A DNA stretch of 64,000 nucleotides from an uncultured Verrucomicrobiota bacterium (GTDB taxonomy: Bacteria; Verrucomicrobiota; Verrucomicrobiia; Limisphaerales; CAZIFU01). Both the position numbers and the translations under genes were made by a program. Of the stretch, positions 1 through 62,487 are shown piece after piece. How positions within the stretch are numbered: position 1 is the stretch's first letter; the number at the start of each line of letters is the position of its first letter. The stretch covers positions 15,134-79,133 of the forward strand of contig CAZIFU010000287.1 in NCBI GenBank assembly GCA_964539075.1, in the 5' to 3' direction. The notes under the pieces were generated by a model. The model was not told the DNA's origin, ran no database searches, and was given only the letters and a program-made list of their open reading frames with translations.

Positions 1-1149
1 GCCGCCGCCGTTGCCAAGACCGGCATTCCGGTCTTCGCGCACAAAGGCGAATCACTCGAAGAATACTGGGACTTCACCCTCGCCGCGCTCACACATCCCG
101 GCAACAAAGGCCCGCAACTCATCGTGGACGATGGCGGCGACGCCACGCTCCTCATCCACAAAGGCTATGAACTGGAAAACGGTGACAACTGGATCAACAC
201 GCCCAGCGACAATCACGAAGTCGCCGTCATCAAGGCGTTGTTGAAAAAGGTCGCGAATGAACGCTCCGGCTTCTGGCACGAAGTCGTGAAGGATTGGAAA
301 GGTGTTTCCGAAGAAACCACCACCGGTGTGCATCGCCTCTACCAGATGCTGGAGCGGGGCAAACTTCTCGTGCCCGCCATCAACGTCAACGACTCCGTCA
401 CCAAGTCCAAGTTCGACAACCTCTACGGCTGCCGCGAATCGCTCGCCGACGGCATCAAACGCGCCACCGACGTGATGATCGCCGGCAAGGTCGCGGTCGT
501 CGCGGGCTACGGCGACGTCGGCAAGGGCTGCGCGCATTCGCTCCGCGGATTTGGCGCACGCGTCATCGTCACCGAGATTGACCCCATCAACGCGCTGCAA
601 GCCGCGATGGAAGGTTTTGAAGTCACCACGCTCGAAGACACGCTCGGCATCGGCGACATCTACGTGACGACCACCGGCAATTGCGACGTCATCACGCTCG
701 ATCACATCCTCAAGATGAAGGATCAGGCCATCGTTTGTAACATTGGCCACTTCGACAACGAGATCCAGGTGGAAAAGCTCAACACGCTGAAAGGCGTGAA
801 GAAAATCAACGTCAAGCCGCAGTACGACAAATACGCACTGCCCAACGGCCGCACGATTTATCTGCTCGCCGAAGGCCGCCTCGTGAACCTCGGCTGCGCC
901 ACCGGCCATCCGAGCTTCGTGATGAGCAACAGCTTCACGAACCAGTGCCTCGCGCAACTCGACCTCTGGGCCAAACGCGACACCAACAAGATCGGCGTCT
1001 ATCGTCTGCCCAAGAAGCTGGATGAAGAAGTCGCCCGCCTGCACTTGGATCGCATCGGCGTGAAGCTGACCAAGCTCACGAAGAAACAGGCCGATTACCT
1101 CGGCGTGCCGCCCGATGGCCCATACAAGCCGGAGCACTATCGGTATTGA
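1..1149 (+). CDS. ahcY: S-adenosyl-L-homocysteine hydrolase (5' end outside window)
   Basis: Frame open from base 1; motifs [50 protein letters not shown]-terminal KPEHYRY. Confidence 0.97.
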
Positions 1150-1157
1150 AAATCAGG

Positions 1158-1186
1158 TTGTTTGAATCCGCCGCGTGTGTCATTGT
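1158..1186 (+). promoter_or_regulatory. Putative sigma70 promoter of cassette 1
   Basis: TTGTTT-17 nt-CATTGT with extended TG, ATG 6 nt downstream at 1193. Confidence 0.45.
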
Positions 1187-1192
1187 CATCCC

Positions 1193-1366
1193 ATGAACAG
1201 AGCAATCGTCACCAAGATGTACGGCGCAAAAGAGATTGAAGCGGAAGTCCGCCAAATGCGCCGGACAGCGAAGCGGATACTCGCGTCGAAAAGCGCGACG
1301 CGACGATTCCTTGCGGCCACCGGGATGTACACGCTGAAAGGCGAATTGAAGCCTCAATTCCGCTGA
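1193..1366 (+). CDS. Small basic protein (57 aa), candidate antitoxin
   Basis: ORF with TGATG overlap onto the next gene; start chosen from promoter geometry. Confidence 0.6.
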   Translation: MNRAIVTKMYGAKEIEAEVRQMRRTAKRILASKSATRRFLAATGMYTLKGELKPQFR

Positions 1367-1935
1367 TGCCTTCGCAATCCCTCGCCATCGGCTACCATGG
1401 GTGCGACCGCAGGTTGGTCGAAAAAGTGGTGGCGGGAGCGGCGGAACTCAAGCCGAGTCAAAACGCCTGGGACTGGTTGGGCCACGGCATCTATTTCTGG
1501 GAGGATAGTCGGGCGCGAGCCTTGCGTTGGGCGGAAACCGAGGCCCAACGGCACGGCACCAAAATCAAAACTCCCGCCGTGCTTGGCGCGGTCATCCAAC
1601 TCGGCCATTGCCTCAACCTCACCGAAACCGAGTCGCTCTCCCTCGTCAAAGGCGCGCATGAATTTTATACCAGCGCGTGCGCTTCGACGGGTTCCCCCGC
1701 AGCGACCAATCGCGGCCCGGAACTGCGCGCGCGATTTCTCGACTGCGCGGTGGTCGAAACCCTTCATCAACTTCGCACGAAAGAAAGAAAACAACCGTTC
1801 GACACCGTGCGCGGCTTTTTCTTGGAAGGGCGTGCTTTGTATCCCGGCGCGGGCTTTCGCGAGTTGGATCACATTCAAATCTGCGTACGCTCGCCCAAGC
1901 AGATCATCGGCTACTTTCTGCCGCGAAACGGTTGA
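1366..1935 (+). CDS. Hypothetical protein, probable ADP-ribosyltransferase-like (DUF3990-like) fold, candidate toxin
   Basis: YHG, GxGIYFW, RAxxWA and HIQICV motifs spaced like the H-Y-E/Q triad of ART enzymes; family assignment is inference. Confidence 0.65.
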
Positions 1936-1944
1936 ACGCATTGG

Positions 1945-2053
1945 GCACCTCGACCGCATTGGCGTGAAGCTGACCAGGCTCACGAAGAAACAAGCCGACT
2001 ACCTCGGCGTGCCGCCCGAAGGACCTTACAAGTCGGAGCACTACCGGTATTGA
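1945..2053 (+). pseudogene. Duplicated 3' end of ahcY (109 bp)
   Basis: Aligns to 1041-1149 with 12 mismatches, 9 synonymous; encodes [35 protein letters not shown]. Confidence 0.95.
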
Positions 2054-2223
2054 TTACCGTGGCTGCGCTCGTGAGAGCGCGGCTGAAATTGGCCTTGTTC
2101 TCAAGAACACCACGAACATTCAATGGCGAGCGGAGATCCCTTTCGCCTTTCTGCTTTCAACCGTGAAATTTGCTGTACACGCCAAATTTGTCGCCGCCAA
2201 AGAATGCAAAAGCCGCAAAGATT

Positions 2224-2263
2224 TCTCCCTGTCCGTCTCGAACGGCGAGAGGGCCGGGGTGAG
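2224..2263 (-). repeat. CCCTCACCCC-family palindromic repeat
   Basis: cctcaccccggccctctcg...agggaga; same family near 3997, 5846, 6184, 13735, 34382, 34505, 38985, 60500. Confidence 0.7.
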
Positions 2264-2272
2264 GTTTCGAAA

Positions 2273-2764
2273 TCAACTTAACCCCTGCTGAATCCGCCGC
2301 ATGAGCCGCGGCTCATTCTTCTTCGCAAGCTCATGTTCCCACACGCGCAACACAAGCCAGCCAGCGCCCTGCAACGTGCGCGTCACAAGCGCATCGCGCG
2401 CGATGTTGCCCGCCAGCTTCCGCCGCCAGAAAGCGCGATTGTTCTGCGGCTTCGTCGCGTGCTTCGGACAGCCGTGCCAGAAACAACCGTCCACAAAGAG
2501 TGCGAGCCGCACCTGCCTGAAAACGAAATCGGGGCGCACGGTGAATGGCGGGAAAAACTTCCAACGTCCAACGCTCAACTTTGAACGTTCAATGTTGGAA
2601 GTTGGACGTTGAACGTTTATTCGGATGACCACCTGTCGTCTCCATCCTGAAATCCGGTTCGCGCGCAACACCCGCGCCAGCACCAGTTCCGTGTCCTTGT
2701 TCCCGCGCCCGCGTATGCTCGACATCACCTCCGACCGCTTGGATTTGGAAAAGACATCAGTCAT
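2273..2764 (-). CDS. vsr: Very short patch repair endonuclease with in-frame heptamer-repeat insert
   Basis: MTDVFSKSKRSEVMSSIR, PDFVF, FVDGCFWHGCP, FWRRKL, LRVWEH; insert at about 2558-2617. Confidence 0.9.
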   Translation of the reverse strand: MTDVFSKSKRSEVMSSIRGRGNKDTELVLARVLRANRISGWRRQVVIRINVQRPTSNIERSKLSVGRWKFFPPFTVRPDFVFRQVRLALFVDGCFWHGCPKHATKPQNNRAFWRRKLAGNIARDALVTRTLQGAGWLVLRVWEHELAKKNEPRLMRRIQQGLS

Positions 2765-2775
2765 GAACAAAAATC

Positions 2776-2891
2776 TTTGACGCTAATTTCGCCAATTGTC
2801 GCCAATTCAGATTCGCGCTAATTCGCGCAATTCGCGTCTGAAAACGTCAGCCATTTGTTTTTAACCGCAGATTACGCGGATGAACGCGGAT
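2776..2891. repeat. Degenerate 9-mer-like tandem repeats
   Basis: cgctaattt/cgccaattg/cgccaattc, cgctaattc/cgcaattcg, gattacgcg/gatgaacgcggat; similar tracts at 3938-3970, 4074-4140, 12023-12065. Confidence 0.55.
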
Positions 2892-2929
2892 GCGAAAGGA
2901 GCGCGACCTTCAGGTCGCTTCAACTGTCG

Positions 2930-3187
2930 AACCTCGGCTTTGACATTAAATCTTTCGAGACCGACGGACACGACCGACTGATCGAAGTGAAGACGACTCG
3001 CTTTGGTTCATTGACCCCATTCTTTGCTTCCAAGAATGAAGTGCAAGTTTCCGAAGCGCACGAGGCTGAGTACCAACTTTACCGTCTGTTCAATTTTACC
3101 AGGCAACCGAGACTTTTTGCTTTGCCGGGTTCTCTTCGCAATACCTGTTCCCTTGATCCGATTCAGTTTTCTGCCCTGCCGCGCTGA
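2930..3187 (+). pseudogene. C-terminal fragment of a DUF3883/NO VEIN-C (PD-(D/E)XK-like) protein
   Basis: LGFDIKSFETDGHDRLIEVKTT...FFASKNEV...YQLYRLFNF; N-terminal part replaced by repeats. Confidence 0.6.
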
Positions 3188-3191
3188 ATAG

Positions 3192-3593
3192 CTATTTCAA
3201 CCAGTTGATTTTGATTTCCTTTTCCAGCGGTTTGAAGTCGGTGTCGGCGGTGACGAGTTCGGCTTTTTTGCTTTTGGCTAGCGCGGCGGCAAAAGCATCA
3301 GCCAGGCCGAGGTCGTGCGCGGTTTTCAATTGCGCGGCTGACTCGGCCAGGTCGCGGTCGAGCGGCGCAACGTCCAGTGGCATCGAGTGTTCAAACCGGC
3401 GCGCGGTTTCCCAGCCTTCCTTGCCGTGCTTGTTTTGCATCTTGTAAAGCACTTCCGCCCAGTTGACGGCGCTGATGAGCATGGGCTTGTCGGCGTCGGC
3501 GGCTTTGTGGAAAAGGTCGCGCACCTGTTCCATGCCCGGTTGCCCGAAGAACATGGCCAGCAGCGCCGAGGCGTCGAGAACGGTGGTCTTCAC
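3192..3593 (-). CDS. vapC: PIN-domain VapC toxin
   Basis: VLDASAL, SAVNWAEV, LGLADAF, LVTAD acidic PIN motifs; overlaps upstream antitoxin by 4 nt. Confidence 0.92.
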   Translation of the reverse strand: MKTTVLDASALLAMFFGQPGMEQVRDLFHKAADADKPMLISAVNWAEVLYKMQNKHGKEGWETARRFEHSMPLDVAPLDRDLAESAAQLKTAHDLGLADAFAAALAKSKKAELVTADTDFKPLEKEIKINWLK

Positions 3594-3856
3594 TTGCGGT
3601 TTTCCCGGTCGCGTTCGGCGCGGCGTTCCTCCAGATGCTCCTGCACGACGGATTTTTCGCCGGGCTTCTGTTTGAAGATGCCGCAGAAGGAATCAATGTA
3701 TTCGCGCGTGACGGGCTGGAAGATGATGCGATCACCTTCCTCCACAAAATTGATGCGCGTGCCGGGCTTGATGCCGAACCGGCGGCGGATGGACGAAGGG
3801 ACCACCAACTGGCCTTTGGATGTGACGTAGGCCGAATTCATAACATATTCTTTCAT
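3590..3856 (-). CDS. AbrB/MazE/SpoVT-family antitoxin
   Basis: VTSKGQLVVPSSIRRRFGIKPG swapped-hairpin signature; start at 3856 or 3841. Confidence 0.9.
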   Translation of the reverse strand: MKEYVMNSAYVTSKGQLVVPSSIRRRFGIKPGTRINFVEEGDRIIFQPVTREYIDSFCGIFKQKPGEKSVVQEHLEERRAERDRENRK

Positions 3857-3864
3857 TCGGCCAA

Positions 3865-3893
3865 AGTCTGGCATAGCCAATAATGTAAGGCAA
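3865..3893 (-). promoter_or_regulatory. Putative sigma70 promoter of the AbrB-VapC operon
   Basis: TTGCCT-17 nt-CAGACT with extended TG, 8 nt before ATG 3856. Confidence 0.45.
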
Positions 3894-3937
3894 GAAGTAT
3901 TTTGTAAGACATAAGCACAATGCCTGTTTTGCGTTTG

Positions 3938-4140
3938 AATCAGCGAGTATTAGCGTAAATCAGCGGTTAAACAGATTTCAACACCTCACCAATGCCCTCA
4001 CCCCCAGCCCCCCTCCCATCCGATGGGCGAGGGTGGCGTCAGAGTCTGCCCGATCGAGGCGGAGAGGGAGATGGCTTTTGTGTTCCTTGTGTTCTTTCGC
4101 GGCGATTTCATCCGTGTCCATCGGTGCTCATCCCGTGGTT
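3938..4140. repeat. Cluster of 9-mer-type and CCCTCACCCC-type repeats
   Basis: atcagcgag/attagcgta/atcagcggt; ccctcacccccagccccctccc...gagggaga; tgtgttcct/tgtgttctt. Confidence 0.55.
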
Positions 4141-4166
4141 GAAATGCATAATCAAGGCTAAAGAGC

Positions 4167-4195
4167 TTGACGACGGCGGCGAACGAACCTATCAC
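4167..4195 (+). promoter_or_regulatory. Putative sigma70 promoter
   Basis: TTGACG-17 nt-TATCAC, ATG 6 nt downstream at 4202. Confidence 0.55.
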
Positions 4196-4239
4196 CGCAG
4201 CATGGCCCGTGGAACGTCGCCGCCACGGGCGACACGAAA

Positions 4240-5802
4240 ATGAACGCTCCACACACCCGTCGTGAATTCCTGGCGGATGTCGGCCGCGGCATGTTGGTCG
4301 CCAGCGTCGGCCATGGCATGGCGACCGAACTCGGACTCGCGCCCGCTTTCGCCGCCGAGGCGGCCGACTCACTCGACTTCGGCCCGCTCGAACCGCTCGT
4401 GCGTCTCATGCAGGAGACGCCCGTCAACCGGCTCCTGCCCGCGCTGGCCGGCCAGCTCAAATCCGGCACCGACCTCCGCCGGTTGGTCGCCGCTGCTGCG
4501 CTCGCCAACGCCCGCACTTTCGGAGGTGAAGACTACGTCGGCTTCCACACGATGATGGCGCTCGCGCCGTCGCTGCACATGGCCCACGAACTTCCCGACG
4601 CGCTCCAGCCACTGCCCGTCTTCAAAGTCCTTTACCGAAACACCAATCGCATCCAGGAACGGGGCGGGCGCAACGAGGAGGTCCTGCACGCGGTCAAACC
4701 CGCGACGCTCTCCGAGGGTCTCCCCGGCGGTGAACTTCTCCGCGACGCCGTCCACCGCAACGATGTGAACGAGGCCGAGCAAACCTTCGCCACGCTCGCG
4801 CAACGCAGCGCCGATGACGCCCTCAATCACCTCCTCCACACCGTGCAGGACCAGACCGAAGTCCACCGTGTCGTCCTGCCTTATCGCGCCTGGGATTTGC
4901 TCGACCTCATCGGCAAGGAGCAAGCCCACACGCTGCTCCGCCAATCTGTCCGCTACTGCGTGAAGGCCGAGTCGTGGCAACACACCGCTGCCTTGGACGA
5001 GCCGCGTACGCTCCTGCCGAAATTGCTCGAACGGCACAATCTTCTCGCCCGCGCGCCCGGCACCCGCGCCGTGGAAGACGAGTGGGTCGAGGAACTCAGC
5101 CAGACCATTTTCAAATCCACGCCCGAACAAGCCGCCGAAACCGCCGCCGCCGCGCTCGCCGAGGGTGTTGCGCCCGCCGCCGTCGGTGAAGCCATTTCGC
5201 TCGCGGCCAACCAACTTGTCCTCCGCGACACGGGCCGGACGCCGCGCGACGAAGTGGCCGGCAAACCGCCCGGCAGCGTTCACGGCGACAGCATCGGCGT
5301 TCACGCCAGCGATTCCGCGTGCGCCTGGCGCAACCTCGCCCGCGTGAGCAACGCCCGAAACACCTTTGCCTGCCTTATTCTCGGCGCGTATCAAGTTGCC
5401 CTCGACCGCACCGCGCGCGGCGGTGATTTCTTGAACTGGCCGCCGCTGCCGGTGAAGGGGCATCTCGGCCAGATCAAATCCACCGAGGCCGGCGCGCTGC
5501 TGCGCGAAGCCGATGAAGCCATCCGCCAAAACCTCCAGGGCCACGCCGCCGCCGTCATCCACCGCTATGGTGAACTCGGCCACTCCCCACGTCCGGTGTT
5601 CGACCTGCTGTTGCGCTACGCCGTGAGCGAAGACGGCGCGCTTCACGCCGAGAAATACTACCGCACCGTGACCGAAGAATTCGCCGCGCTGCGCCCGGCG
5701 TTCCGCTGGCGTCAACTGGTGGCGCTCGCCCGCGTCACCGCCAGCGAATACGGCCGGCCCGCGCCGGGGATGGCGGAGGCAAGAGTGGTTTTGAAGGTTT
5801 AA
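4240..5802 (+). CDS. Hypothetical protein with twin-arginine-like N-terminus
   Basis: 520-aa ORF with host-like codon usage; TRREFL motif; His-rich motifs (GFHTMM, VHGDSIGVHASD, LHAEKYY). Confidence 0.8.
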   Translation: MNAPHTRREFLADVGRGMLVASVGHGMATELGLAPAFAAEAADSLDFGPLEPLVRLMQETPVNRLLPALAGQLKSGTDLRRLVAAAALANARTFGGEDYVGFHTMMALAPSLHMAHELPDALQPLPVFKVLYRNTNRIQERGGRNEEVLHAVKPATLSEGLPGGELLRDAVHRNDVNEAEQTFATLAQRSADDALNHLLHTVQDQTEVHRVVLPYRAWDLLDLIGKEQAHTLLRQSVRYCVKAESWQHTAALDEPRTLLPKLLERHNLLARAPGTRAVEDEWVEELSQTIFKSTPEQAAETAAAALAEGVAPAAVGEAISLAANQLVLRDTGRTPRDEVAGKPPGSVHGDSIGVHASDSACAWRNLARVSNARNTFACLILGAYQVALDRTARGGDFLNWPPLPVKGHLGQIKSTEAGALLREADEAIRQNLQGHAAAVIHRYGELGHSPRPVFDLLLRYAVSEDGALHAEKYYRTVTEEFAALRPAFRWRQLVALARVTASEYGRPAPGMAEARVVLKV

Positions 5803-5845
5803 GATCGGGTTGGAATGAGAATCGGCACATTGGGCACAGGAAATT

Positions 5846-6195
5846 CCCTCACCCCGGCCCTACCCATGAACCTCGCTGGCTGCGCAACGATGCGGCAAGG
5901 AGGCGGGTGATCGAAGTCGCGAAGCGCTTGGAGTGCGCCGGCCCCAGCCGGCGCTTTCCACATCATCAACAGCGCCGACTCGCGTCGGCGCACTCTCCCG
6001 CCTTGCGGGACTGACGCGCGGGCGAAGGCTCCATCCGGTTCAGGGGCACAATTCGTGAACTTCGATTCATGGAATTTCCCCCTGAGGGAGAGGGGGAATC
6101 TTGGCCAGCGTGTTCGCAATCCGAGCGCGCCCGGGTTGGTGTAGGACTGGATACCGTTCTCCCTCTCCCCCTGGGAAAGGATTGGGGTGAGGGCA
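5846..6195. repeat. Nested repeat cluster
   Basis: CCCTCACCCC element interrupted by a CCCATGAACC...GGTTCAGGGG shell (5863-6046) that contains a TTGGAGTGCG-type hairpin pair. Confidence 0.65.
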
Positions 6196-6289
6196 CCGCT
6201 TTATCGTTTGTCCCGATTATTACTGGGAAATGGTATGACTCGACCACGTTCCACCGCGTCCGACGGGCGTTTCGCCAACCAGGGAACCT

Positions 6290-7663
6290 TCAATACTCCC
6301 GATGCTTTTTGATGCCCGGCTGCGGGATGGGATACTTGCCGTCGGCGTCGGCGGGCAGCGGCGAGGGTGAATTCATCGTCAGCTTGTCCACGTCCGGCGC
6401 ATACTCGTGCTCGTGGTTGAGCATCTCCTCGAACGTGATCTCCTGGCCGGTGTGCGCCGCCATGCGGCCCATGGAAGTCACGAGGCTGGCTTCGACGCCG
6501 CGTTTGACTTCGTTGTAAGGCTTGTCGTCGCGAATGGCATCGAGAAGATCGTGCCATTCGTTGCTGTAGGGATCCGCCTCGCCCGGTTTGACATCGGAAG
6601 TCCAGATCAGCTTGTCGCGCTGCGGAGACAGGCCTTTGTAGGTGCTCGAAGGCAATCCGCAGTCGTTATGCGCCGAGGCGATCGCCATGCCTTTGGTGCC
6701 ATGCACGTAGCTGGAGTAAATCGGCAGGGCACCCACCATGCAGCGGCCGTCCATGAGGAACTTGGAGCCGTCGGCGAACGTGTATTCCACTGAATAGCTG
6801 TCGAAGTTCTGGTCAATGTCGTTGCCGCGATAATGCCGGCCGCCGATCGCCTGGGCCTTGACCGGCCAGGCGTTCTTCATCCAGCAGAGATGATCAATGT
6901 GGTGGATGTAGAAGTCGCTGAACCCCCCGCCGCTCGCCCAGAGGAAGCTGTGGAAACGTGAAATCTGCCACAACAATTCACTGGGTTGGCCGGGCCATTT
7001 TTCCGAGAATGCCGACCCGATCGGTCCCTGCATCCGGTAACCGCGCATGAGAACGATGTCGCCGATTTCGCCGTCCTGAATGCGGTGCTGCAGTTCCTGG
7101 AGCGCGCGGCTGTGACGTGACATCAAGCCCACGCCGACTTTCAAGTTCTTCGCCGAGGCCTCCTCCGCGAGCTTGAGCATGCGGCGCGAAGTCGGGCCGT
7201 CCGCCGTCAGCGGCTTTTCCATGAAGACGTTCAGGCCCTTTTGGATGGCGTAAGTAAAATGCACCCAGCGAAACGCCAGCGGCGTCGTGAAGATGACGAT
7301 GTCGCCCTTCTTGAGGCAATCCACCGCCTTCTGGTAACCGTCGAAGCCGATAAACTGGCGGTCTTCGGGCACGTCCACCTGTTTTTCGAATTTTTCCGTC
7401 AACGCGTGGTGGCTGCCCTTGAGCTTGTGCTCGAAGACATCGGCCATGGCGACGAGTTTGGGCGGGCCGCTGCAGGCCAGCGCGTTGGCGGCGGCGCCGG
7501 TGCCGCGGCCGCCGCAACCCACCAGCGCCAACTGGATATTGTCGCTCCCGACGGCGTGGACGTGCGGGAGGGCCACGCCGGCCAGGGCTGACGCGGCGGC
7601 GAGGCGGGTGCTGTTCTTCAGAAATTCGCGGCGTGAGGTGAGCAGGTTTTGGTTTTCGTTCAT
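6290..7663 (-). CDS. Tat-exported Gfo/Idh/MocA oxidoreductase
   Basis: SRREFL signal, ALVGCGGRGTGA, FMEKP motif. Confidence 0.9.
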   Translation of the reverse strand: MNENQNLLTSRREFLKNSTRLAAASALAGVALPHVHAVGSDNIQLALVGCGGRGTGAAANALACSGPPKLVAMADVFEHKLKGSHHALTEKFEKQVDVPEDRQFIGFDGYQKAVDCLKKGDIVIFTTPLAFRWVHFTYAIQKGLNVFMEKPLTADGPTSRRMLKLAEEASAKNLKVGVGLMSRHSRALQELQHRIQDGEIGDIVLMRGYRMQGPIGSAFSEKWPGQPSELLWQISRFHSFLWASGGGFSDFYIHHIDHLCWMKNAWPVKAQAIGGRHYRGNDIDQNFDSYSVEYTFADGSKFLMDGRCMVGALPIYSSYVHGTKGMAIASAHNDCGLPSSTYKGLSPQRDKLIWTSDVKPGEADPYSNEWHDLLDAIRDDKPYNEVKRGVEASLVTSMGRMAAHTGQEITFEEMLNHEHEYAPDVDKLTMNSPSPLPADADGKYPIPQPGIKKHREY

Positions 7664-7717
7664 AAAGCCATCTTCCTGACGTTCGCGAACCGATGTCAAT
7701 TCAAGAAGTCAGCCCGG

Positions 7718-7807
7718 TTTGGAGTTCACGCTTTAGCGTGTCTGCGCCGTTTGGAGTTCACGCTTTAGCGTGTCTGCGCTGACAGCCTAAAGGCTGGACT
7801 CCAAACT
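7718..7807. repeat. GGAGT-type REP-like hairpin with tandemly duplicated left arm
   Basis: tttggagttcacgctttagcgtgtctgcgc occurs twice, then acagcctaaaggctggactccaaac. Confidence 0.75.
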
Positions 7808-7833
7808 CCGGACATTCACGAACTGCTCCGCAC

Positions 7834-9417
7834 TTACATCCCATCCCGCAGAATCTCCCGCGCGGCGTTGTAGCCGCACGCGCCCATCACGCCGCCGCCC
7901 GGATGCGTGGCCGCTCCGCACAGGTAAAGACCGCGGACCGGCGTGCGATAGTTCGCGTAGCCGGGGACCGGCCGCAGGAAAAAGAGCCGGTGCAGGTGCA
8001 TCGCGCCCTGAAAAATGTTGCCGCCGGTCAGGCCATAACGCCGTTCCATGTCGAGCGGCGAAAGCACCTGGCGGGCAATCACCGCGCGGCGGAAGTTCGG
8101 CGCGTACTCGTTGAGGATGTCGAAGCACCGGTCGGCGAATTTTTCCTTCACGTCATCCCAGCTCGCGCCGCGCAGGTCCGTCGGCGCATACTGGACGAAC
8201 AGGGACATGAGATGTTTGCCCGGCGGCGCGACCGTCGGGTCCACCACGGACGGGATCGTGCCTTCCAGGATCGGGGATTCCGAAGGGCGGCCATATTTCG
8301 CGTCGTCGTAAGCGCGCTCGAGGTAGTCGAACGTGGGCGAGATATGGATCGTGCCGCGATGCTGCGGGCCGGCTTCCCTGCCCGGCAACGCCTTGAAGTC
8401 CGGCAGTTCGCCGAGCGCCACGTTGATTTTGAGCGAGGGGCTGGTGTAATCAATTCCGCGCACGGACTCGACGAAGTCGCCCGGCAGTTCGGCCGGGTCC
8501 ATCAGCTTGAGGAATGTGACATGGGCGTCGGCATTCGACACAACGGCGCCAGCGCGCAGCTCGGTTCCGTCTTCGAGCACGACGCCGGCCGCACGGCCGC
8601 GCTCGACGAGAATTGTTTTCACCGGCGCGTTGCAGCGAATCTCCGCGCCGCGCTCGCGCGCCGCCGCGGCCAGCGCGTTGCTGATGCCGCCCATGCCGCC
8701 GCGCACGTACCCCCAGACGCCGCGCGCGCCGTTGCACTCACCCATGACGTGGTGAAAAAGCACGTAGGCCGTGCCTGGCATGGACGGCGAGGCCATCGCG
8801 CCGATGATCGCGTCGGTGGCCAGCGTGACTTTGAGTTGTTCGGACTCGAACCAGCGGTCGAGAATGGGCCGCGCGGCGCCGGTGAGGATTTCGATCGCCT
8901 GCGCGCCGTCGCGGCCGAGTTTGCGGAAGCGCCAGGCCAGCCGGGCGAGTTGCGCCAGGTCGCGCCACCGTCCCGACCACGGGTCGGGCGGCGTCTGCAG
9001 GAGCGTCGGCTCGATGAAATCGGCCACGCGTTCGAGCATTTTTTCGTAACGGGGCAGCGCCGCGGCGTCCTTCGCGGAAAATTTGCTGATCTCGCGCCGG
9101 TTCAAGTCCGCGTCCGGTCCGAGCAACAGGTGACGGCCATCGGGGAACGGCGTGAACGAGGAAGGATTGCGCGGCAGCAGCTCGTAGCCGTGGCGCGGGA
9201 GATCGAGGTCGCGGATGATTTCGGGCCGCAACAGGCTGTTCACGTAGGCGGCGGTGGAGACTTTGAAGCCGGGCCAGATTTCCTCCGTCACGCAGGCGCC
9301 GCCGACCAGTTCGCGCCGTTCCAGCACGAGCACGCGCCGGCCCGCGCGGGCCAGGTAGGCCGCCGTCACCAGTCCGTTGTGCCCCGCGCCGATGATGAGA
9401 ATGTCGTAGTGAGCCAT
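7834..9417 (-). CDS. NAD(P)/FAD-dependent oxidoreductase, phytoene desaturase/PYROXD2-like
   Basis: IIGAGHNGLVTAAYLA, VLERR, C-terminal LYLCGAATHPGGGVMG. Confidence 0.9.
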   Translation of the reverse strand: MAHYDILIIGAGHNGLVTAAYLARAGRRVLVLERRELVGGACVTEEIWPGFKVSTAAYVNSLLRPEIIRDLDLPRHGYELLPRNPSSFTPFPDGRHLLLGPDADLNRREISKFSAKDAAALPRYEKMLERVADFIEPTLLQTPPDPWSGRWRDLAQLARLAWRFRKLGRDGAQAIEILTGAARPILDRWFESEQLKVTLATDAIIGAMASPSMPGTAYVLFHHVMGECNGARGVWGYVRGGMGGISNALAAAARERGAEIRCNAPVKTILVERGRAAGVVLEDGTELRAGAVVSNADAHVTFLKLMDPAELPGDFVESVRGIDYTSPSLKINVALGELPDFKALPGREAGPQHRGTIHISPTFDYLERAYDDAKYGRPSESPILEGTIPSVVDPTVAPPGKHLMSLFVQYAPTDLRGASWDDVKEKFADRCFDILNEYAPNFRRAVIARQVLSPLDMERRYGLTGGNIFQGAMHLHRLFFLRPVPGYANYRTPVRGLYLCGAATHPGGGVMGACGYNAAREILRDGM

Positions 9418-9553
9418 GACCACGGCCATCCAACCAGAACTGCGCGTAAAAACGAAGGAGGATTCGTACAAGCCGGCAGGGAACGGCGGGGAACGGTTGA
9501 CTTTCGCGGTTTCTCCCGTAGCGTCGCTCGCAAGTTGCGCCGCCGCGCCCGAC

Positions 9554-15194: not shown

Positions 15195-15456
15195 GAGTGC
15201 AGGCACCCGTGCCTTCGCCCGGAAAGCTTCGAGTTCTTGTTCTTGCGGTTTCCCAAACTTTGTCGCATATGCGACGAAGTTTTGAAGCGCGTGGAGGCTT
15301 CGCATATTCGAAACTCAAGCGGACGTTGCTGATAAACATCCCGACTTTACGTGGCAGTAGGAACGCTGGCAGCTGTTCTCACGCTTGAACGTTTCAAGTT
15401 TTTGTTCGAGGGGTTATCCCAAACTTTGTCGCATATGCGACAAAGTTTGGGAGCGC
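15134..15456. repeat. 166-bp-period tandem duplication of the hrpB 3' end plus palindrome
   Basis: Stop-equivalent TAG at 15194 and 15360; TCCCAAACTTTGTCGCATATGCGAC at 15251 and 15417; perfect 36-bp palindrome at 15417-15452. Confidence 0.85.
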
Positions 15457-15513
15457 GTGAGGGCGTGAAACCCTTGTATTCGCGGGACGGCGGCCTGCGC
15501 TCCAATGCGGCGG

Positions 15514-41997: not shown

Positions 41998-42152
41998 AAT
42001 GGTGACGACGACACTAACATTCCGGCGCGCCGTTCGGCCAGCCCATTCCGCAGGGGGAACATGGGCTGGCCATTTCACCTTGGGAGCAGCCTCGATCTTC
42101 CTGAAACCGAAAGCCGGTGATGGTCGGTAAAATCGCCCACCCCATGAAACTC

Positions 42153-43501: not shown

Positions 43502-43506
43502 GAGGG

Positions 43507-44133
43507 CTATTCCATCTCGCGCGGCGGGAGGATCCGTTGCTCGATACCCGGTTCGCGCACCGACAAGTAGTGCTTCCAAAACCACGGCCAGTAATCCGGC
43601 TCGAAGGGATTCAATCGCGGATACCCCGGCACGACCGCACCCAGATACGGCCAGTCCGGCGGCGCCTTCACCAGCCCGCCCTTGAACGGATTGAGCAGCA
43701 CGTAATCCGCGCAGGCGAGGCTGAACGCGCGCCGTTGCCGCTCCTCCGCCGTGAGCACGTGATCGTGCGGCTGATGCTGGAACTTCGCCGGCTTGAGGAA
43801 CGGACCGAGTTGCGCGCGGAGAAACTTCATCCCGTTGCGCTGGTCGGCCTGCTTGCGGATGCCCATCCAGACAAGATGAACGTGGTTGGGCATGAGGCAA
43901 TAGGCCGGGCAGAGCAATCCCTCGCGGGCGGCGGCATGAAGCATCATCTCGCGAAAGGCGGCGTGGAAGGAATGGTCCAGCCAGCCCGATTGGCGATGCG
44001 CCACGGGCAGGGTCCAGAAGACCACGGCGTCGGCCTGGTAAAACTCGCGCTTCAACCGCGGGAGATAGTGGGAGAACGAGGAGCGTGGCTTGCGCTCGTC
44101 AGGGTTTGGGGAACCACCGGATGGATCGGGCAT
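43507..44133 (-). mobile_element. REP-associated tyrosine transposase (RAYT, Y1/HUH family)
   Basis: AYCLMPNHVHL HUH motif, DYVLLNP...GL catalytic Tyr, DWPY; flanked on both sides by GTAG REPs. Confidence 0.88.
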
Positions 44134-51265: not shown

Positions 51266-51415
51266 AAAATGACGAATGACGAATGACGAATGACGAAAGA
51301 ATGACGAAGCTCGAAGCCCCAAGACGCGTGCGCAAATCGTTCGCGTTGGCATCGGCTGTTTCGACATTCGTCATTTGGAATTCCTTGGTCATTAGGATTT
51401 GGTCATTCGTCATTG
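51266..51415. repeat. (GAATGAC)n heptamer hairpin
   Basis: Four to five GAATGAC units and an inverted GTCATT(C/T) arm; supplies the ATPase stop codon. Confidence 0.8.
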
Positions 51416-52365
51416 CCCCGAGCGCCGTTGATGCGATCACTTGTCAAAGCGACGAAAACATCCTCCAGCGACGGCGCAATCGGCCGGATGTCCGCGCGCG
51501 CGATGCCCACCTTCGTCAGTTCCTCGCGCATGAGTTGCTCGGACATGTCCTGCTCGATCAGCAGGTGCATGGATTGGCCGAAGACCGTCGCGGCCTTCAC
51601 CCCCGGCAGCCGCCGCAACGACTGCAAGCCCACCGTCACGTGCTCGCACGTCACGTCCACCCGGCGTGTGCCGGGCGGGTTGACGACGCGGAGTTGCTTG
51701 AGCGCATCCGGCTCGCCGCACACCACCAGTTTGGAGAAGGAGATGTAGCCCACGTGCGAACAGCGTTCCGCCTCGTCCATGTAATGCGTCGTGATGAACA
51801 GCGTGATCCCCTTGCTGGAAAACTCGAAGAGCAAATCCCATAACTCGCGCCGCGCCACCGGATCAATGCCCGCCGTCGGCTCGTCGAGAAACAGCACGCT
51901 CGGCTTGTGTACCAACGAGCAGGCCATCGCGAGCCGTTGCCGCCAACCGCCGGAGAGCAGGCCGGCGCGGCGAGCGAGGTAGGGTTCGAGGTGCGTGAGC
52001 GTGATAAGTTCGTCGCGCCGCTGCGCCAGCGCCGCGCCGCGCAGCCCGTAGAGCCGCGAGTAAAACGTGATGTTCTCGTGCGCCGTCAATTCGTCGTAGA
52101 GCGAGAACTTCTGCGACATGTAACCGATGAGCGACTTGATGTGCTCCGTCTGCCGCGCCACGTCGTAGCCGGCGATGGTCGCGCGCCCCTCGGACGGTTC
52201 CAGCAGCCCGCACAACATGCGGATGACCGTGGACTTGCCCGAGCCGTTGGGACCGAGGAAGCCGAAGATGGACCCTTTGGCGACGCTGAACGACACGCCG
52301 TCCACGGCGGTGAAATGTCCAAACCGCTTCGTCAGGTTTTCACATTCGATCATCGCGTCGGGCAT
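51403..52365 (-). CDS. ABC transporter ATP-binding protein
   Basis: [33 protein letters not shown]. Confidence 0.93.
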   Translation of the reverse strand: MPDAMIECENLTKRFGHFTAVDGVSFSVAKGSIFGFLGPNGSGKSTVIRMLCGLLEPSEGRATIAGYDVARQTEHIKSLIGYMSQKFSLYDELTAHENITFYSRLYGLRGAALAQRRDELITLTHLEPYLARRAGLLSGGWRQRLAMACSLVHKPSVLFLDEPTAGIDPVARRELWDLLFEFSSKGITLFITTHYMDEAERCSHVGYISFSKLVVCGEPDALKQLRVVNPPGTRRVDVTCEHVTVGLQSLRRLPGVKAATVFGQSMHLLIEQDMSEQLMREELTKVGIARADIRPIAPSLEDVFVALTSDRINGARGNDE

Positions 52366-52373
52366 GGTGAAGA

Positions 52374-52991
52374 TCACTCGGTTGTTACCTCGAACCCCTC
52401 AAAGCGCTGTTCCCAAACTTGCATCAACGGTCGCCAGTCATTCCCGTCGCCAGCCCTCAGTGCGGCGAAATAATTGGACTCGCCTGCGGTCTCCGTGGGA
52501 ACAAGGTCAACCGGCGGAAGTTCCAACCGGCGGAGCAATTCACGAAGAAAGAGACGGGTGACACGACCATTGAAATCGTTGAACGGATGGATCGAGAGCA
52601 GGCGCCCCTCGGCAAACGCGAGCATTTCCAGGAGCAGGTCATCCATCTTCCTGCTGGCATTTTGGAGACGCACACGAAGGTTCTCGCTGTAGTCACGCAT
52701 GAGGATGGGCACGCGAAACGGCGGTGGTGGGTTGTGCTCGCCGACCGTCACCTCGGCGTCGCGCCACCGACCCGCCCATTCGGGCACCAGATCAGCGGCG
52801 ATTTCAGAATGAAAACGCAGGATGAGTTCGCCACCGGGGTCTTGGGCAGCAAAAGCGCCTGAAGCAATGGCGGTTTCCACGCGGAGCACACGTTCGGCCA
52901 GCAGCGGCGCCAACTGCGAATAACTCAGGAGGCCGCTTGTGGTTTGAATGAAGCGGGTCGCTCCGCCTGGCGGTGTAGTTTCTCCAGCCAT
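52374..52991 (-). CDS. Fic-domain protein (class I toxin candidate)
   Basis: HPFNDFNGRVTR, a variant of HPFx(D/E)GNGRxxR. Confidence 0.88.
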   Translation of the reverse strand: MAGETTPPGGATRFIQTTSGLLSYSQLAPLLAERVLRVETAIASGAFAAQDPGGELILRFHSEIAADLVPEWAGRWRDAEVTVGEHNPPPPFRVPILMRDYSENLRVRLQNASRKMDDLLLEMLAFAEGRLLSIHPFNDFNGRVTRLFLRELLRRLELPPVDLVPTETAGESNYFAALRAGDGNDWRPLMQVWEQRFEGFEVTTE

Positions 52992-53122
52992 GATTGGTCA
53001 ACGGCCTCCTTCTCGAACGCCATGGACAGGGCCACCTGGCGCGGAATCCGCCGCCAACAAATCTCCTGCCGGGCTTCAGCATTGAGCCGCCGCCAGCGTT
53101 GGATGGTTTCAGTCCATTTCAT
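52925..53122 (-). CDS. Small protein, candidate FicA-like antitoxin
   Basis: Directly upstream of and overlapping fic; SMAFEK resembles the (S/T)xxxE(G/N) inhibitory motif. Confidence 0.6.
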   Translation of the reverse strand: MKWTETIQRWRRLNAEARQEICWRRIPRQVALSMAFEKEAVDQSWLEKLHRQAERPASFKPQAAS

Positions 53123-59598: not shown

Positions 59599-61815
59599 TC
59601 AACGCACGGCGCGTTTGCGTTTGCCGCCGCGCGGGTAGCGGACTTTGACAGGGGCGGCGGGCGACTGCATTCCCAGTGCACCGCGTTTGAGTTCGTTGAT
59701 CTGATCGCGGAGCAGCGCGGCTTTTTCGAACTCCAGGTTGTTGGCGGCTTCGAGCATTTCGGCTTCGAGTTCGCGGAGGGTCTCGGTCACGTCGAAGTTG
59801 CCGCCGGCTTCGTTGATCACGGCCGCGGCGCGGGCGGAGCCTTCGCGATACACCGCCAGGCTGTCCTCGACGGCGCGGCTGACGCTGCGCGGGGTGATGT
59901 GGTGCTCGCGGTTGTAGGCGAGCTGCTTCTCGCGGCGGTAGTTGGAAATGGCCAGAAACTTTTGAATGCTCTGCGTCATCACGTCGGCGTAAAGGATCAC
60001 TTCACCGTTCAGATGGCGTGCGGCGCGGCCGGCGGTCTGAATCAAACTCGTCTCGCTCCGGAGAAAACCTTCCTTGTCAGCGTCGAGAATGGCGACGAGC
60101 GACACCTCCGGCAGATCGAGGCCTTCGCGCAGCAGGTTGATGCCGACGAGCACGTCGAACTCGCCCTTGCGGAGCCCGCGCAGAATCTCGACACGCTCGA
60201 TGGCGTCAATCTCGCTGTGCAGGTAACGGACGTTGATGCCGATGTCGCGGAGGTAATCGGTCAGTTCCTCGGCGGTGCGCTTGGTCAGCGTGGTGACGAG
60301 CACGCGCTCTTTTTGCTCGACCCGTTTGCGCGCCTCGTTGATGAGGTCATCAATCTGGCCCTTGAGCGGTTTGACGGTGATGACCGGGTCCACCAGGCCG
60401 GTGGGGCGGACGACCTGTTCGACGACGCCGGAATTTCCACTGCCCAGGCCCTCGCTTTGCGGGACCACCCTCTCCCCACCCGATGGGGAGAGGGACGGGG
60501 TGAGGGGTGCTCTTGTTTCTTCCGTAGCAGCCGACGTGAGGAGGCTCTGATCAATGTCCTTTGAAGAATGAGCCTCCTCACGTCGGCTGCTACGAACTTG
60601 AAGGGCACTCTCCCCTGCCCATTGAATTTCCCGACCGCCTGGCGTGGCGCTGACATAAATGGTCTGGTTCTGGTGGCCTTGAAACTCGCCGAAGTTCAGG
60701 GGGCGATTGTCGAGCGCGCTGGGGAGCCGGAAACCGTGCTCGACGAGGACGGTCTTGCGCGAGCGGTCGCCTTCGTACATCCCGCCGATCTGCGGGACGG
60801 TGGCGTGCGACTCGTCAATCACAAGCAGGAAATCCGGCGGGAAAAATTCCATCAAGGTGCAGGGCCGCGAACCGGCCGGCCGGCCGGTGATGTGGCGCGA
60901 ATAATTTTCAATGCCGGAACAAAAGCCCATCTCCTCCATCATCTCCAGGTCGTACTCGGTGCGCATCTTGACGCGCTGGGCTTCAAGCAGTTTGCCGTGC
61001 TTTTCGAACCACGCGATGCGGTCGCCCAGTTCCTCGCGGATGGTCAGGACGGCGCGCTTTGTTTTTTCAGCGGGCGTGACGAATTGTTTGCCGGGGAAAA
61101 CGGTGACCACTTCCAGGCCCTCGATTTTGTCACCGGTGAGCGGCTCGAAGCGGGTCAGGCGCTCCACCCGGTCGCCGAAAAACTCGATGCGCAACGCGTC
61201 TTCCACGTAGGCGGGGCACAGTTCGACGGTGTCGCCGCGCACGCGGAACTGGCCGCGGGTGAACTCGATGTCGTTGCGGTTGTATTGCAGGTCCACCAAA
61301 CGGAGGAGGAACTGGTCGCGGGTCAGTTCCTGGCCGGCGCGCAAGTGGACGAGCATCGTCTCGTAATCCTCCCGGCTGCCGATGCCATAGATGCACGAGA
61401 CGCTGGCGACCACGATCACGTCGCGTCGCGCGAAGAGCGAACTCATCGTCGAGAGCCGCATCCGCTCGATCTCCTCGTTCACGCTGGAATCCTTCTCGAT
61501 GAAGGTGTCGGTGCGCGGGATGTAGGCTTCGGGCTGGTAATAATCGAAATAACTCACGAAATACTCGACGGCGTTGCGCGGAAAAAAACTTTTGAATTCG
61601 GCGTAAAGCTGCGCCGCGAGCGTCTTGTTGTGCGAGATGACGAGCGTGGGCTTGTTTACGTTTTGGATGGCATTGGCGATGGTGAAGGTCTTGCCGGAGC
61701 CGGTGACGCCGAGCAGCACCTGATGCTTCGCGCCGGACAACAGCCCCTCGGTCAGCTTCGCAATCGCTTGCGGCTGGTCACCGGCGGGCGCGTATGGGGC
61801 GACGAGTTCGAACAT
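59599..61815 (-). CDS. uvrB: Excinuclease ABC subunit B with ~60-aa repeat-derived insert
   Basis: [50 protein letters not shown]-terminal UVR domain. Confidence 0.97.
60459..60593. repeat. In-frame GTAG REP hairpin plus CCCTCACCCC element inside uvrB
   Basis: Perfect 23-bp arms at 60524-60546 and 60571-60593; second element at about 60461-60507. Confidence 0.9.
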
Positions 61816-61870: not shown

Positions 61871-62158
61871 TCAAATAGCCTTGGCCAGTTGGCGGCGCTT
61901 CATGCCCAGGCGAAAAAGGGTTTGCAGCAGCAGGTCAATGGATACCGTGGCATCGGCCGCCTCCATCTTGGCAACACGGGATTGACTGGTTTTCAAGCGC
62001 GCCGCCAAGGCCGTCTGCGTGAGTCCCTGTTCCTGTCGCAAAGCGCGCACCTGACGGGCGAGCGCCCGTCGCATCTCGATGAATTCCAGGTCGGCGTCGG
62101 ACAGGTCTAGGAAGTCCTGCACCGAGCCTTCCACCCAACCGTTTTTCAACTTTTTCAT
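61871..62158 (-). CDS. XRE/HTH antitoxin
   Basis: [24 protein letters not shown]; overlaps toxin by 4 nt. Confidence 0.9.
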
Positions 62159-62487
62159 GGCTGGCTTGCTTCGTAGAGTTTCACCCGCCGCCGGCAGTTT
62201 TGGATTACTGCGTCCGGCGTTTTTTCAGTCTTCTTCTCAAACACGTCCAGAACCACGACGGCGTCCGCTTCGAGGCGGTAAATCACCCGCCACGCTTTGT
62301 TCCGGTCGTTCACGCGCAACTCGTGGCAGCGCGGACCGATGATCGGCATCGGGCGGGAGTGGGGCAGACCCAGGTTCTCGCCGTCCTGCAAGTCTCGCAA
62401 GAGCATCCCGATTTCCCGCCGGGCTTCCACGCTCATCGGCGGGGTTTTCACCTCGCCGTGCAGCCAGCGCAGGGGCTTGCCGTTCAT
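62155..62487 (-). CDS. RelE-like (Gp49/DUF891-type) toxin
   Basis: LPHSRPMPIIGPRCHELRV, WRVIYR, FEKKTEKTP. Confidence 0.9.
   Translation of the reverse strand: MNGKPLRWLHGEVKTPPMSVEARREIGMLLRDLQDGENLGLPHSRPMPIIGPRCHELRVNDRNKAWRVIYRLEADAVVVLDVFEKKTEKTPDAVIQNCRRRVKLYEASQP

Follow-up and report, generated by a model that had tools for sequence, protein, structure and literature searches.

The 3′ end of ahcY, the gene for adenosylhomocysteinase, is present twice in the window studied here (the whole stretch of DNA that was analysed, 64,000 nucleotides in length), and the two copies enclose a mobile cassette composed of two small overlapping genes that would encode a toxin–antitoxin pair. Comparison of the copies suggests that one of them probably derives from another lineage. 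The reading we prefer, and to which we would give roughly even odds, is that the cassette inserted by homologous recombination of the Campbell type within the end of ahcY, using the gene end it carried and thereby restoring ahcY. The region contains the following features:

1..1149, + strand: ahcY (adenosylhomocysteinase), truncated by the start of the window, 3′ end complete (NCBIfam TIGR00936, 3e-136)
1041..1149, + strand: c1, the last 35 codons plus the stop codon, completing the functional ahcY (alignment)
1150..1192, + strand: cassette leader, 43 nt in the window (alignment of the window with L121, L167, L120, L132, L097 and L095)
1193..1366, + strand: A57, a 57-aa ORF, putative antitoxin partner (called as a 57-aa gene beside the 189-aa gene in L005-L010)
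1366..1935, + strand: T189, a 189-aa ORF, putative toxin of ADP-ribosyltransferase (ART) fold, distantly CmdT-like (weak profile and fold signals)
1945..2053, + strand: c2, a displaced ahcY 3′ end lying outside any conserved ORF (alignment)
2054..2160, + strand: native ahcY 3′ region, with a REP-like hairpin at ~2065-2080 and a terminator hairpin at ~2125-2148 followed by a T-rich tail

Two copies of the ahcY 3′ end

The 109-nt repeat (1041-1149 and 1945-2053) aligns without gaps and is identical at 97 of 109 bases. The alignment confirms the original prediction that the last 36 codons of ahcY recur with exactly 12 substitutions, only three of which alter the peptide (K>R, D>E and P>S). Chance is excluded as the source of this likeness by the BLAST E-values, 8e-37 and, when the window is compared with itself, 2e-34. 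Both copies are terminated by TGA and the likeness ceases at the stop codon; to the left of position 1945 a possible weak similarity reaches ~20 nt further. The longest run of identical bases measures 20 nt (1096-1115 and 2000-2019), which is compatible with an att core without being diagnostic of one. A further weak ahcY-like match is found elsewhere in the window, at 60246-60289.

The ahcY product shares 93% amino-acid identity with AhcY of Verrucomicrobiota MAGs. Since c1 and c2 both bear the clade signatures HLDR and PP, neither can be assigned as the imported copy. In the related loci L167, L120 and L151 an in-frame stop lies just 5′ of c2, indicating that c2 is not translated as a conserved product; the same stop rules out translation of c2 through the 218-aa ORF 1397..2053, which had been considered as a candidate. 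The fate of c2 varies between loci: it is truncated or decayed in L007, L121, L132 and L151, and its peptides are identical or near-identical to functional AhcY in L167 and L120.

No terminator is present between c1 and the cassette, the native terminator being located 3′ of c2. The sequence 2054..2160 is homologous to that found right after the ahcY stop codon in L007 and after c2 in L120. It has a fold z of −2.3, a terminator-like site at 2130-2146 and a REP-like 'LTSAAT' element at ~2075.

The junctions are well supported. In Logan contigs from four public runs all three of them (c1/module, module/c2 and c2/downstream) are crossed with zero mismatches, sequencing depth is even (14 in the module versus 11.6 in the flank, and 12.8 versus 13.5), and L006, a 969-nt contig of independent origin, shows no difference from the window. 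Their recurrence in independent assemblies shows that the junctions are not a misassembly, one of the two checks on which the original prediction had been made to depend. An artefact in which the ahcY ends of two strains were joined around an unrelated fragment could be suspected from several related contigs that end within the repeat; with all three junctions crossed in four runs and the same architecture recovered from independent metagenomes, we regard its probability as negligible. A circular form, an empty-site joint or an excision joint was not seen among the Logan contigs, which drop rare variants.

The cassette

The insert of ~0.8 kb between the two copies comprises a leader of ~45 nt, the 57-aa ORF and the 189-aa ORF. 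These two coupled ORFs are indeed the sole genes between the copies, as had been proposed, the ATG of T189 overlapping the TGA of A57 (TGATG), and the gene pair is kept across unrelated contexts. The small ORF has 57 codons counted from the ATG at 1193, or encodes 63 aa if the GTG start at 1175 given in the ORF list is used. The promoter that was also claimed could not be substantiated: a scan of positions 1000-2300 for the sigma-70 consensus returned no match, and there is only the leader, with a weak candidate, TTGTTT-17-CATTGT. This leader has been conserved in copies of the cassette from various host contexts, contains no terminator hairpin and appears unstructured (z = +1.75). Neither the Rfam nor the tRNA scan gave a match in the region, and no inverted repeats were detected between 900 and 2400. 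GC content is the same in the cassette as in ahcY, as one would expect of a related donor.

A57 was found with tblastn at 82 of 90 cassette loci and has no match in Pfam, NCBIfam or PADLOC. T189 belongs to a family of 4257 homologues, none of them named, and its relatives on viral contigs are merely 40-48% identical. The T189 of the window has no match in Pfam or NCBIfam or among solved structures. It is matched by the PADLOC profile PD-T4-9_A (2.9e-7, residues 4-60), and when its relatives are compared with Pfam the best signals come from PARP (0.0025, in 4 of 37 relatives) and Exotox-A (0.012). The top Foldseek matches of the T189 model, itself of low confidence (pLDDT 66.7), are exotoxin A, Tpt1 and PARP16, none of them significant (E of at least 0.1). 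Three residues, H11, Y43 and E154, are invariant. Taken as weak sequence signals, these similarities make T189 a candidate ART-type toxin, and we infer that A57 and T189 function as antitoxin and toxin.

Empty sites and related lineages

The locus L013 provides a near-isogenic empty site for the sister locus L167, the ahcY genes of the two being 95% identical. In L013 the ahcY stop codon is directly followed by the terminator that stands after c2 in L167, where 914 nt are inserted at this point. Within the two copies of L167 the changes specific to c2 are found on the left and those specific to c1 on the right (3+3 sites, p about 0.05), just as a crossover within the repeat predicts. A second copy of the gene end within 6 kb was found in none of 80 module-free ahcY loci, and the expectation that relatives without the module also lack the duplication is therefore borne out. 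No empty site that could be aligned was found for the lineage of the window, and downstream synteny gave no counterpart of the proteins of 2273-11653 in any of 170 loci.

A composite with the same T189/c2 junction occurs, partly decayed, in several diverged lineages, so the event is not necessarily recent or restricted to this genome; the composite may have been acquired when an allele already containing it replaced the resident one by homologous recombination. When the window is compared with L011, identity falls at c1 from 94.5% to 85% (Fisher p = 0.01), to be read together with the observations that c2 is no closer to L011 and that divergence of the last 109 nt is faster among module-free genomes too. 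The T189 of the window is closest to that of L007 and to a copy outside any ahcY context, the AhcY of the window is closest to those of L011 and L012, which are both without the cassette, and in the T189 tree the ahcY-linked copies are found at three separate places. This disagreement between T189 and AhcY similarity is at odds with a single ancient insertion followed by vertical inheritance, in which selection would have kept c2 for its own function, for instance as a peptide, as an RNA element or within the ahcY 3′ UTR. Such a history would account for the identical junction across diverged lineages and for c2 peptides that match functional AhcY in L167 and L120, but in view of the decay of c2 in four loci, the in-frame stop that precedes it in three and the absence of an Rfam family match we consider it highly improbable.

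Recurrence at other gene ends

Relatives of the cassette with 82% amino-acid identity are found in unrelated contexts. Flanking direct repeats were present in 7 of 40 evaluable cassettes compared with 0.46% of 4324 control windows, a difference of ~38-fold. They include gcvP-like and other gene 3′ ends, which terminate exactly at the stop codon; the length of the repeat ranges from 62 to 159 nt between sites and the copies are 79-97% identical. Serial arrays exist at ahcY in L121 and L132 and at gcvP in L095, in which other small genes of the toxin–antitoxin type (DUF433, DUF4926) are separated by decaying gene-end copies. The same layout is seen within the window itself for Fic and HigBA cassettes; the genes concerned are an ABC ATPase gene and uvrB, and it is their 5′ ends that are used. 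Three further repeats (42152, 43344 and 44144), considered as gene-end duplications, were rejected because they are REP-like elements near an IS200/RAYT-like gene.

Silent divergence between the copies

Seven gene-end pairs together show 55 synonymous and 19 non-synonymous differences, giving a pN/pS of 0.10. For the pair in the window the figures are 8 synonymous and 4 non-synonymous when averaged over paths (9 and 3 by direct count), and for the L167 pair 6 and 0. Synonymous divergence of the copies amounts to 0.22-0.52 with amino-acid change near nil, and in the window the pS between c1 and c2 (0.32) resembles that between its ahcY and the nearest relatives (0.36). Since the differences are mostly silent, we conclude that one copy of every pair probably stems from a different lineage; at ahcY it would have been imported together with the cassette from a related bacterium.

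These values bear directly on a long duplication of the resident target, produced by staggered breaks or replicative repair, whose copies would at first have been identical and have diverged later. A short insert without mobility genes, direct repeats of ~100 bp that are single-copy at the empty site, and a repeat length that varies from site to site are all what one would expect from it. A model of neutral decay of the free copy, however, predicts that 64% of the differences are non-synonymous, which is rejected with P = 3e-11. The synonymous divergence with scant amino-acid change would require selection on a frameless fragment, yet c2 lies outside any conserved ORF, and the differences in L167 are divided between left and right rather than concentrated in c2. 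We therefore think that a duplication of this kind is improbable.

Discussion

We have arranged these data in a model in which the incoming DNA would be the ahcY end of a related lineage lying beside the cassette, and it would enter through reciprocal recombination within the final ~110 nt of ahcY. Two routes can be envisaged. A circle made up of the ahcY end and the cassette could integrate by a Campbell-type single crossover, or a donor allele already containing the c1-cassette-c2 composite could replace the resident one by homologous recombination. By either route one copy would keep ahcY intact while the other would be a leftover, and the cassette would come to lie within the ahcY transcription unit, after the stop codon and ahead of the native terminator. 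The recombination itself would most likely be carried out by the homologous recombination machinery of the host, for which the gene end brought along by the cassette would act as a portable homology arm, because the cassette has no recombinase and different toxin–antitoxin families share the layout at other gene ends. We infer both the route of recombination and its dependence on RecA.

The Campbell-type insertion restoring ahcY that was originally predicted is thus supported in part: c1 completes ahcY, c2 is followed by the native terminator, and L013 and L167 give the empty and occupied forms of the site. An integrase (in the ORFs of 1150-5800, or by a crude motif search of the 64 kb), inverted repeats (in 900-2400) and an identical core longer than 20 nt were not found. 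As a separate observation, the longest identical run of 20 nt is short for efficient RecA recombination. It can also be remarked that a model based on homology alone explains the exact end of the repeats at the stop codon only indirectly, through a donor in which the cassette came right after the stop codon or through faster divergence of non-coding sequence.

Both the common junction and the repeat ends would also fit site-specific integration with an integrase that was lost or acts in trans, the cassette being a decayed remnant or a non-autonomous satellite, comparable to a CIME, of an integrative element with an attP that contains the ahcY 3′ end, in the manner of e14 and phage 21 at icd. 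The layout is that of icd and icdC around e14, including the mostly silent differences between copies; every ahcY-linked lineage shares one position of the T189/c2 junction; in several host genes the stop codon exactly marks the end of the repeat; and the arrays recall tandem accretion at an att site. Against this, a Pfam search of the ORFs in 1150-5800 revealed no integrase, and a crude regular expression for the tyrosine-recombinase motif found none in the ORFs of at least 120 aa throughout the 64 kb of the window. The 80 ahcY loci without a second gene end within 6 kb also speak against it, as do five viral contigs carrying the AhcY C-terminus, all of which hold a full-length ahcY and not an attP-like fragment. 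Moreover, three unrelated toxin–antitoxin families are found at three genes in one window, and each would need a matching integrase. On balance we judge this explanation unlikely, although less so than a target duplication.

Homologous recombination, the reading we favour, can be extended to a whole class of integrase-free mobile elements, in which toxin–antitoxin cassettes of Verrucomicrobiota would carry the end of a housekeeping gene as homology 'bait'. Host recombination would direct them into the orthologous gene of related hosts, with the gene restored and the cassette co-transcribed. Being bracketed by conserved sequence, a cassette could spread whatever the local gene order and accumulate in arrays. 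We put this generalization forward tentatively, as something possible rather than probable. If true, it would also suggest how the 'insertion with long target duplication' seen with addiction modules comes about.

How toxin–antitoxin and restriction-modification modules move without mobility genes is a long-standing gap, and the pattern of long target duplication, described in 2000, still lacks a mechanism. The flanking copies studied here are evidently not a simple target duplication, their silent differences being like those between orthologues of different lineages. A descriptive pattern can in this way be turned into a testable model, with the carried gene end as homology arm in a RecA-dependent process, which would explain why cassettes are found exactly at conserved gene ends, their co-transcription and the formation of arrays. 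The T189 family, with more than 4000 unnamed members, represents in addition a candidate new ART-type toxin.

Comparison with known systems

Several classes of small mobile elements resemble the cassette in part. With respect to integron cassettes, neither an attC-like inverted repeat in 900-2400 nor an integron integrase was found. Transposons and MITEs are set apart from it by terminal inverted repeats, which are absent from 900-2400, and by a short duplication, which here measures 109 nt. The minimal mobile elements of Neisseria are small cassettes exchanged at a fixed place beside conserved genes, and are not known to have a flanking duplication. The CIMEs of streptococcal ICEs have att-like repeat flanks and accumulate in tandem, and they depend on the integrase and att sites of an ICE; the cassette likewise has no mobility genes, but no element of the ICE integrase type was found here.

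As regards the cargo, PD-T4-9 corresponds to CmdTAC, a toxin–antitoxin–chaperone defence system with an mRNA ADP-ribosyltransferase toxin. T189 shares with it a weak N-terminal match to PD-T4-9_A, a near-equal length (191 positions) and conserved H, Y and E residues. The match covers only ~57 residues, however, the partner is an upstream 57-aa ORF without detectable homology, and no gene for a SecB-like chaperone accompanies the two ORFs between the repeats.

The layout is closest to that of e14 and phage 21, which integrate in the 3′ end of icd in Escherichia coli and leave the icdC pseudogene fragment. In both cases the element is flanked on one side by a complete gene, which takes its last codons from the copy on the side of the element, and on the other by a displaced C-terminal fragment; differences between the copies are mainly synonymous and conservative, and excision would rebuild a functional hybrid gene (PMC13626634; Hill et al. 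1989, cited therein). A prophage of 15 kb, e14 has an integrase of its own and is excised upon SOS induction. In contrast to e14, the insert studied here has a size of 0.8 kb, has no recombinase and is located inside the transcription unit of the host gene, and the same and other cassettes use further gene ends, 5′ ends included.

The gene content and repeats are reminiscent of restriction-modification systems that show 'insertion with long target duplication' (Nobusato et al. 2000, Gene 259:99; Furuta, Abe and Kobayashi 2010, PMC2853133). An insert of less than 20 kb without mobility genes and flanked by direct repeats of more than 30 bp, by which such insertions are recognized, is what we observe. 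Both comprise an addiction-type gene pair devoid of mobility genes and long direct repeats of variable length (~100 bp), single-copy at the empty site of a related genome. Literature searches for toxin–antitoxin cassettes with long target duplications returned only restriction-modification papers. The cargo is nevertheless different, consisting here of toxin–antitoxin-like 57-aa and 189-aa ORFs, the latter ART-like. In the repeat table of PMC2853133 the flanking copies are more alike mutually than to the empty site. In our case one copy would have been imported and not copied from the target, the copies having 79-97% identity with mostly silent differences; the repeats consist of gene ends, reaching no further than the stop codon, and there are also arrays.

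A cassette between two copies of the ahcY 3′ end

The 3′ end of ahcY (NCBIfam TIGR00936, 3e-136; the protein is 93% identical to AhcY from Verrucomicrobiota MAGs) occurs twice, once completing the gene (c1, 1041-1149) and again as a displaced copy (c2, 1945-2053). As noted from the sequence alone, the copies differ by 12 substitutions, with three amino acids altered (K>R, D>E, P>S), the alignment being gap-free with 97 of 109 bases identical (BLAST E-values 8e-37 and 2e-34). Both copies terminate with TGA and the similarity ends at that stop. The arrangement is real: the c1/cassette, cassette/c2 and c2/downstream junctions are spanned mismatch-free by contigs of four public runs, read depth over the cassette equals that of the flanks, and an independent contig of 969 nt agrees with the window at every position. 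In view of these junctions and the even depth an assembly artefact deserves practically no credence. The interval contains:

1150-1192, leader, 43 nt
1193-1366, A57 ORF, 57 aa
1366-1935, T189 ORF, 189 aa, its ATG overlapping the A57 stop

The start of c2 lies nine bases past the end of T189. The two coupled ORFs expected between the copies are thus present; the promoter also expected there found no match in a scan with the sigma-70 consensus.

Pfam and NCBIfam searches gave no match for either A57 or T189, and the T189 family comprises 4257 proteins, all unnamed. The pair is kept in 82 of 90 loci, and the leader is conserved across different host genes, starting 0-8 nt past the host stop codon. 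PADLOC PD-T4-9_A matches T189 residues 4-60 (2.9e-7); PD-T4-9 is CmdTAC, the toxin of which is an ADP-ribosyltransferase (ART) targeting mRNA. Pfam searches of 37 T189 relatives gave a PARP match for four (best 0.0025) and an Exotox-A match for one (0.012). In Foldseek, exotoxin A, Tpt1 and PARP16 come out on top, none of them significantly and from a poor model (pLDDT 66.7); residues H11, Y43 and E154 are invariant. These weak signals favour a putative ART fold in T189. Since the pair is conserved and such signals exist, we infer a toxin-antitoxin-like function for the cassette, with T189 as the putative ART toxin. About 28 IMG/VR viral contigs (L171-L198) have T189 relatives of 40-48% identity, so that phages or prophages carry the family too.

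Occupied and empty ahcY loci

The cleanest comparison is between the cassette-free locus L013 and its occupied sister L167, whose ahcY genes are 95% identical. In L013 the ahcY stop codon is followed by the terminator, while in L167 that terminator comes after c1, the cassette and c2, the insertion amounting to 914 nt. Folding of the region in the window revealed no hairpin between c1 and the cassette; 3′ of c2 lie a REP-like hairpin and then a terminator hairpin, homologous to the sequence right behind the ahcY stop in L007 and to that following c2 in L120. Because no hairpin follows c1, the native terminator follows c2 and the empty L013 has the terminator that closes the occupied L167, ahcY, A57, T189 and c2 probably form a single transcription unit closing at the native terminator. 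If c1 and c2 recombined, an intact ahcY would result.

The composite is also found in L120, L151 and L166/L167, with the T189/c2 junction always immediately before the RLHL codons. In L166/L167, T189 is frameshifted near codon 62 (L167:3797-4362), which means a pseudogene or else an error in sequencing, and the ahcY copies on its two sides are better preserved than any others (94% identical). In L007 c2 is reduced to 32 nt. In L121 and L132 a further small gene (DUF433 in L121) follows ahcY and its terminator; beyond it the cassette sits between decayed copies, c1′ and c2′, with a terminator after c2′. A duplication without the module would speak against the predicted insertion; none of 80 module-free ahcY loci in GTDB genomes has a second C-terminus copy.

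Divergence between the copies

If the repeats were a true target duplication, the copies would have been identical at the start and the free one would have decayed neutrally. The seven gene-end pairs show 55 synonymous and 19 non-synonymous differences (pN/pS = 0.10, Nei-Gojobori), an excess of silent changes (P = 3e-11 against the 64% non-synonymous expected under neutral decay) that contradicts a decayed target duplication and leaves this explanation improbable. The L167 pair has 6 silent and 0 replacement differences, the ABC ATPase pair described below 12 and 2 by Nei-Gojobori, and the window pair 8 and 4 when path-averaged, or 9 silent substitutions and 3 altered amino acids when counted directly. 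An old insertion passed down vertically, with c2 serving a function, is very hard to credit, since an in-frame stop precedes c2 in L167, L120 and L151, which rules out direct coding selection on c2. The pS between c1 and c2 of the window (0.32) is close to the ahcY distance to its nearest relatives (0.36). On the simplest reading of these sequences, both copies would have diverged mostly as working gene ends in separate lineages, so that one of them, c1 or c2, would have come in with the cassette. In L167 the three variants specific to c2 are all found left of the three specific to c1 (p about 0.05), a split that would match what a crossover within the repeat predicts; two of these left-hand c2 variants recur in c2 of L120 and L151. 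The clade signatures HLDR and PP are present in both window copies. Compared with L011, identity falls from 94.5% to 85% at c1 (Fisher p = 0.01), but between module-free genomes too the last 109 nt diverge faster, and c2 is no closer to L011.

Cassettes at other gene ends

Copies of T189 with 82% identity to that of the window adjoin a peptidase M19 gene, others sit between an AMP-binding gene and hemC, and a neighbour-joining tree, not backed by bootstrapping, puts the ahcY-linked copies at three separate places. Of 40 evaluable cassettes, 7 have direct repeats of 39 nt or more lying within 450 nt of each end, compared with 0.46% of 4324 control windows. The repeat consists of the final 25-35 codons of a gcvP-like gene, ending at TGA, in L097 and L095, of the end of a convergent gene in L155 and of the 3′ end of another gene in L134. 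The cassette is a mobile one that has repeatedly come to lie between gene ends.

The L095 array reads gcvP end, cassette, DUF4926 pair, decayed gcvP end, small ORF, gcvP end. Successive, partly decayed copies of one host gene end enclose the DUF433 gene at L121:327-840, and likewise a DUF4926 pair and a 64-aa ORF at L095:1694-2664. Both arrays look like products of serial insertion.

Two further cassettes in the window have the same layout as at ahcY, at gene 5′ ends instead:

51403..52377, minus strand, ABC ATPase gene
52374..52991, minus strand, Fic-domain gene (Pfam Fic, 1.4e-11)
52925..53122, minus strand, 65-aa ORF upstream of Fic
59599..61815, minus strand, uvrB
61871..62158, minus strand, XRE-family HigA-like gene
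62155..62487, minus strand, Gp49/HigB-like gene

The Fic gene and the 65-aa ORF are flanked by two 159-nt copies of the ABC ATPase 5′ end (52208-53325; 91% identical, 14 differing sites, one amino-acid change). The HigB-like and XRE genes lie between uvrB and a diverged copy of its 5′ end at 62535-62631 (79% identical, with indels), the arrangement as a whole covering 61700-62631. Because three unrelated toxin-antitoxin families occupy three genes in a similar layout, we argue for a general process and not one encoded by the cassette.

Surroundings of the cassette

REP-like hairpins (translating as ‘..LTSAAT..’) occur at 42150-44210, where they surround a 208-aa IS200/RAYT-like ORF (43507..44133; HVHLVW motif, no Pfam match), at about 2075, directly 3′ of c2, and at 60540-60577, apparently in frame within uvrB. 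Downstream of ahcY lies a Vsr-like mismatch endonuclease ORF (2273-2770, minus strand), in which a palindromic insertion of some 60 nt (about 2556-2620) keeps the frame and divides the Pfam match into two stretches. A 110-aa fragment (2855-3187, plus strand), probably a truncated defence gene, matches the C-terminal end alone of NOV_C / PADLOC PDC-S36 (1.6e-35) and adjoins a VapC (PIN) and AbrB/MazE-type VapB pair (3192-3880, minus strand). The GC content of 2600-4200 (0.49-0.55) is below that of the flanks (0.58-0.69), pointing to an accessory islet. Elsewhere, stretches of about 165 nt are duplicated in tandem at 39167-39508 (83% identity) and 15127-15459 (79%), and a 118-nt inverted repeat (75% identity) at 6077-6194 and 34381-34497, about 28 kb apart.

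Mechanism of insertion and known systems

Of the Campbell-type insertion originally proposed to restore ahcY, the layout stands; the usual machinery did not come to light. Among the ORFs of 1175-5799 Pfam revealed no recombinase, a crude search no tyrosine-recombinase motif across the 64-kb window, and we found no inverted repeats around the cassette, no tRNA in a scan of the region and no attP-like ahcY fragments on viral contigs. An integrase that was later lost, or one that works in trans, could leave such a layout behind but seems rather unlikely to us. Given a Campbell layout without recombinase, inverted repeats or tRNA, and a duplicate that appears imported, we favour homologous recombination within the carried gene end, with about even confidence. 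Insertion would occur either by a circle crossing over once with the chromosome or through replacement by a donor allele already carrying the composite. Once made, the bracketed unit would have conserved sequence on both sides and could spread despite the downstream gene order, which at this ahcY locus is not conserved among relatives; arrays could grow by unequal exchange. Weak points of homologous recombination are the longest identical c1/c2 run of 20 nt, the exact stop-codon boundary of the repeats, and the first capture of a new gene end, which it leaves unexplained.

The E. coli prophage e14, inserted in the icd 3′ end with icdC as the displaced fragment, shares the Campbell-type, gene-restoring layout, whereas the ahcY cassette has it without an integrase. 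The nearest published description concerns restriction-modification systems and their ‘insertion with long target duplication’, for which the literature offers no mechanism; here, in contrast, the duplicate would be imported instead of copied from the target, and the cargo is toxin-antitoxin-like. The ahcY cassette varies both known kinds: it has the e14/icd layout without integrase, and long-target-duplication behaviour involving a toxin-antitoxin-like cargo and an apparently imported copy.
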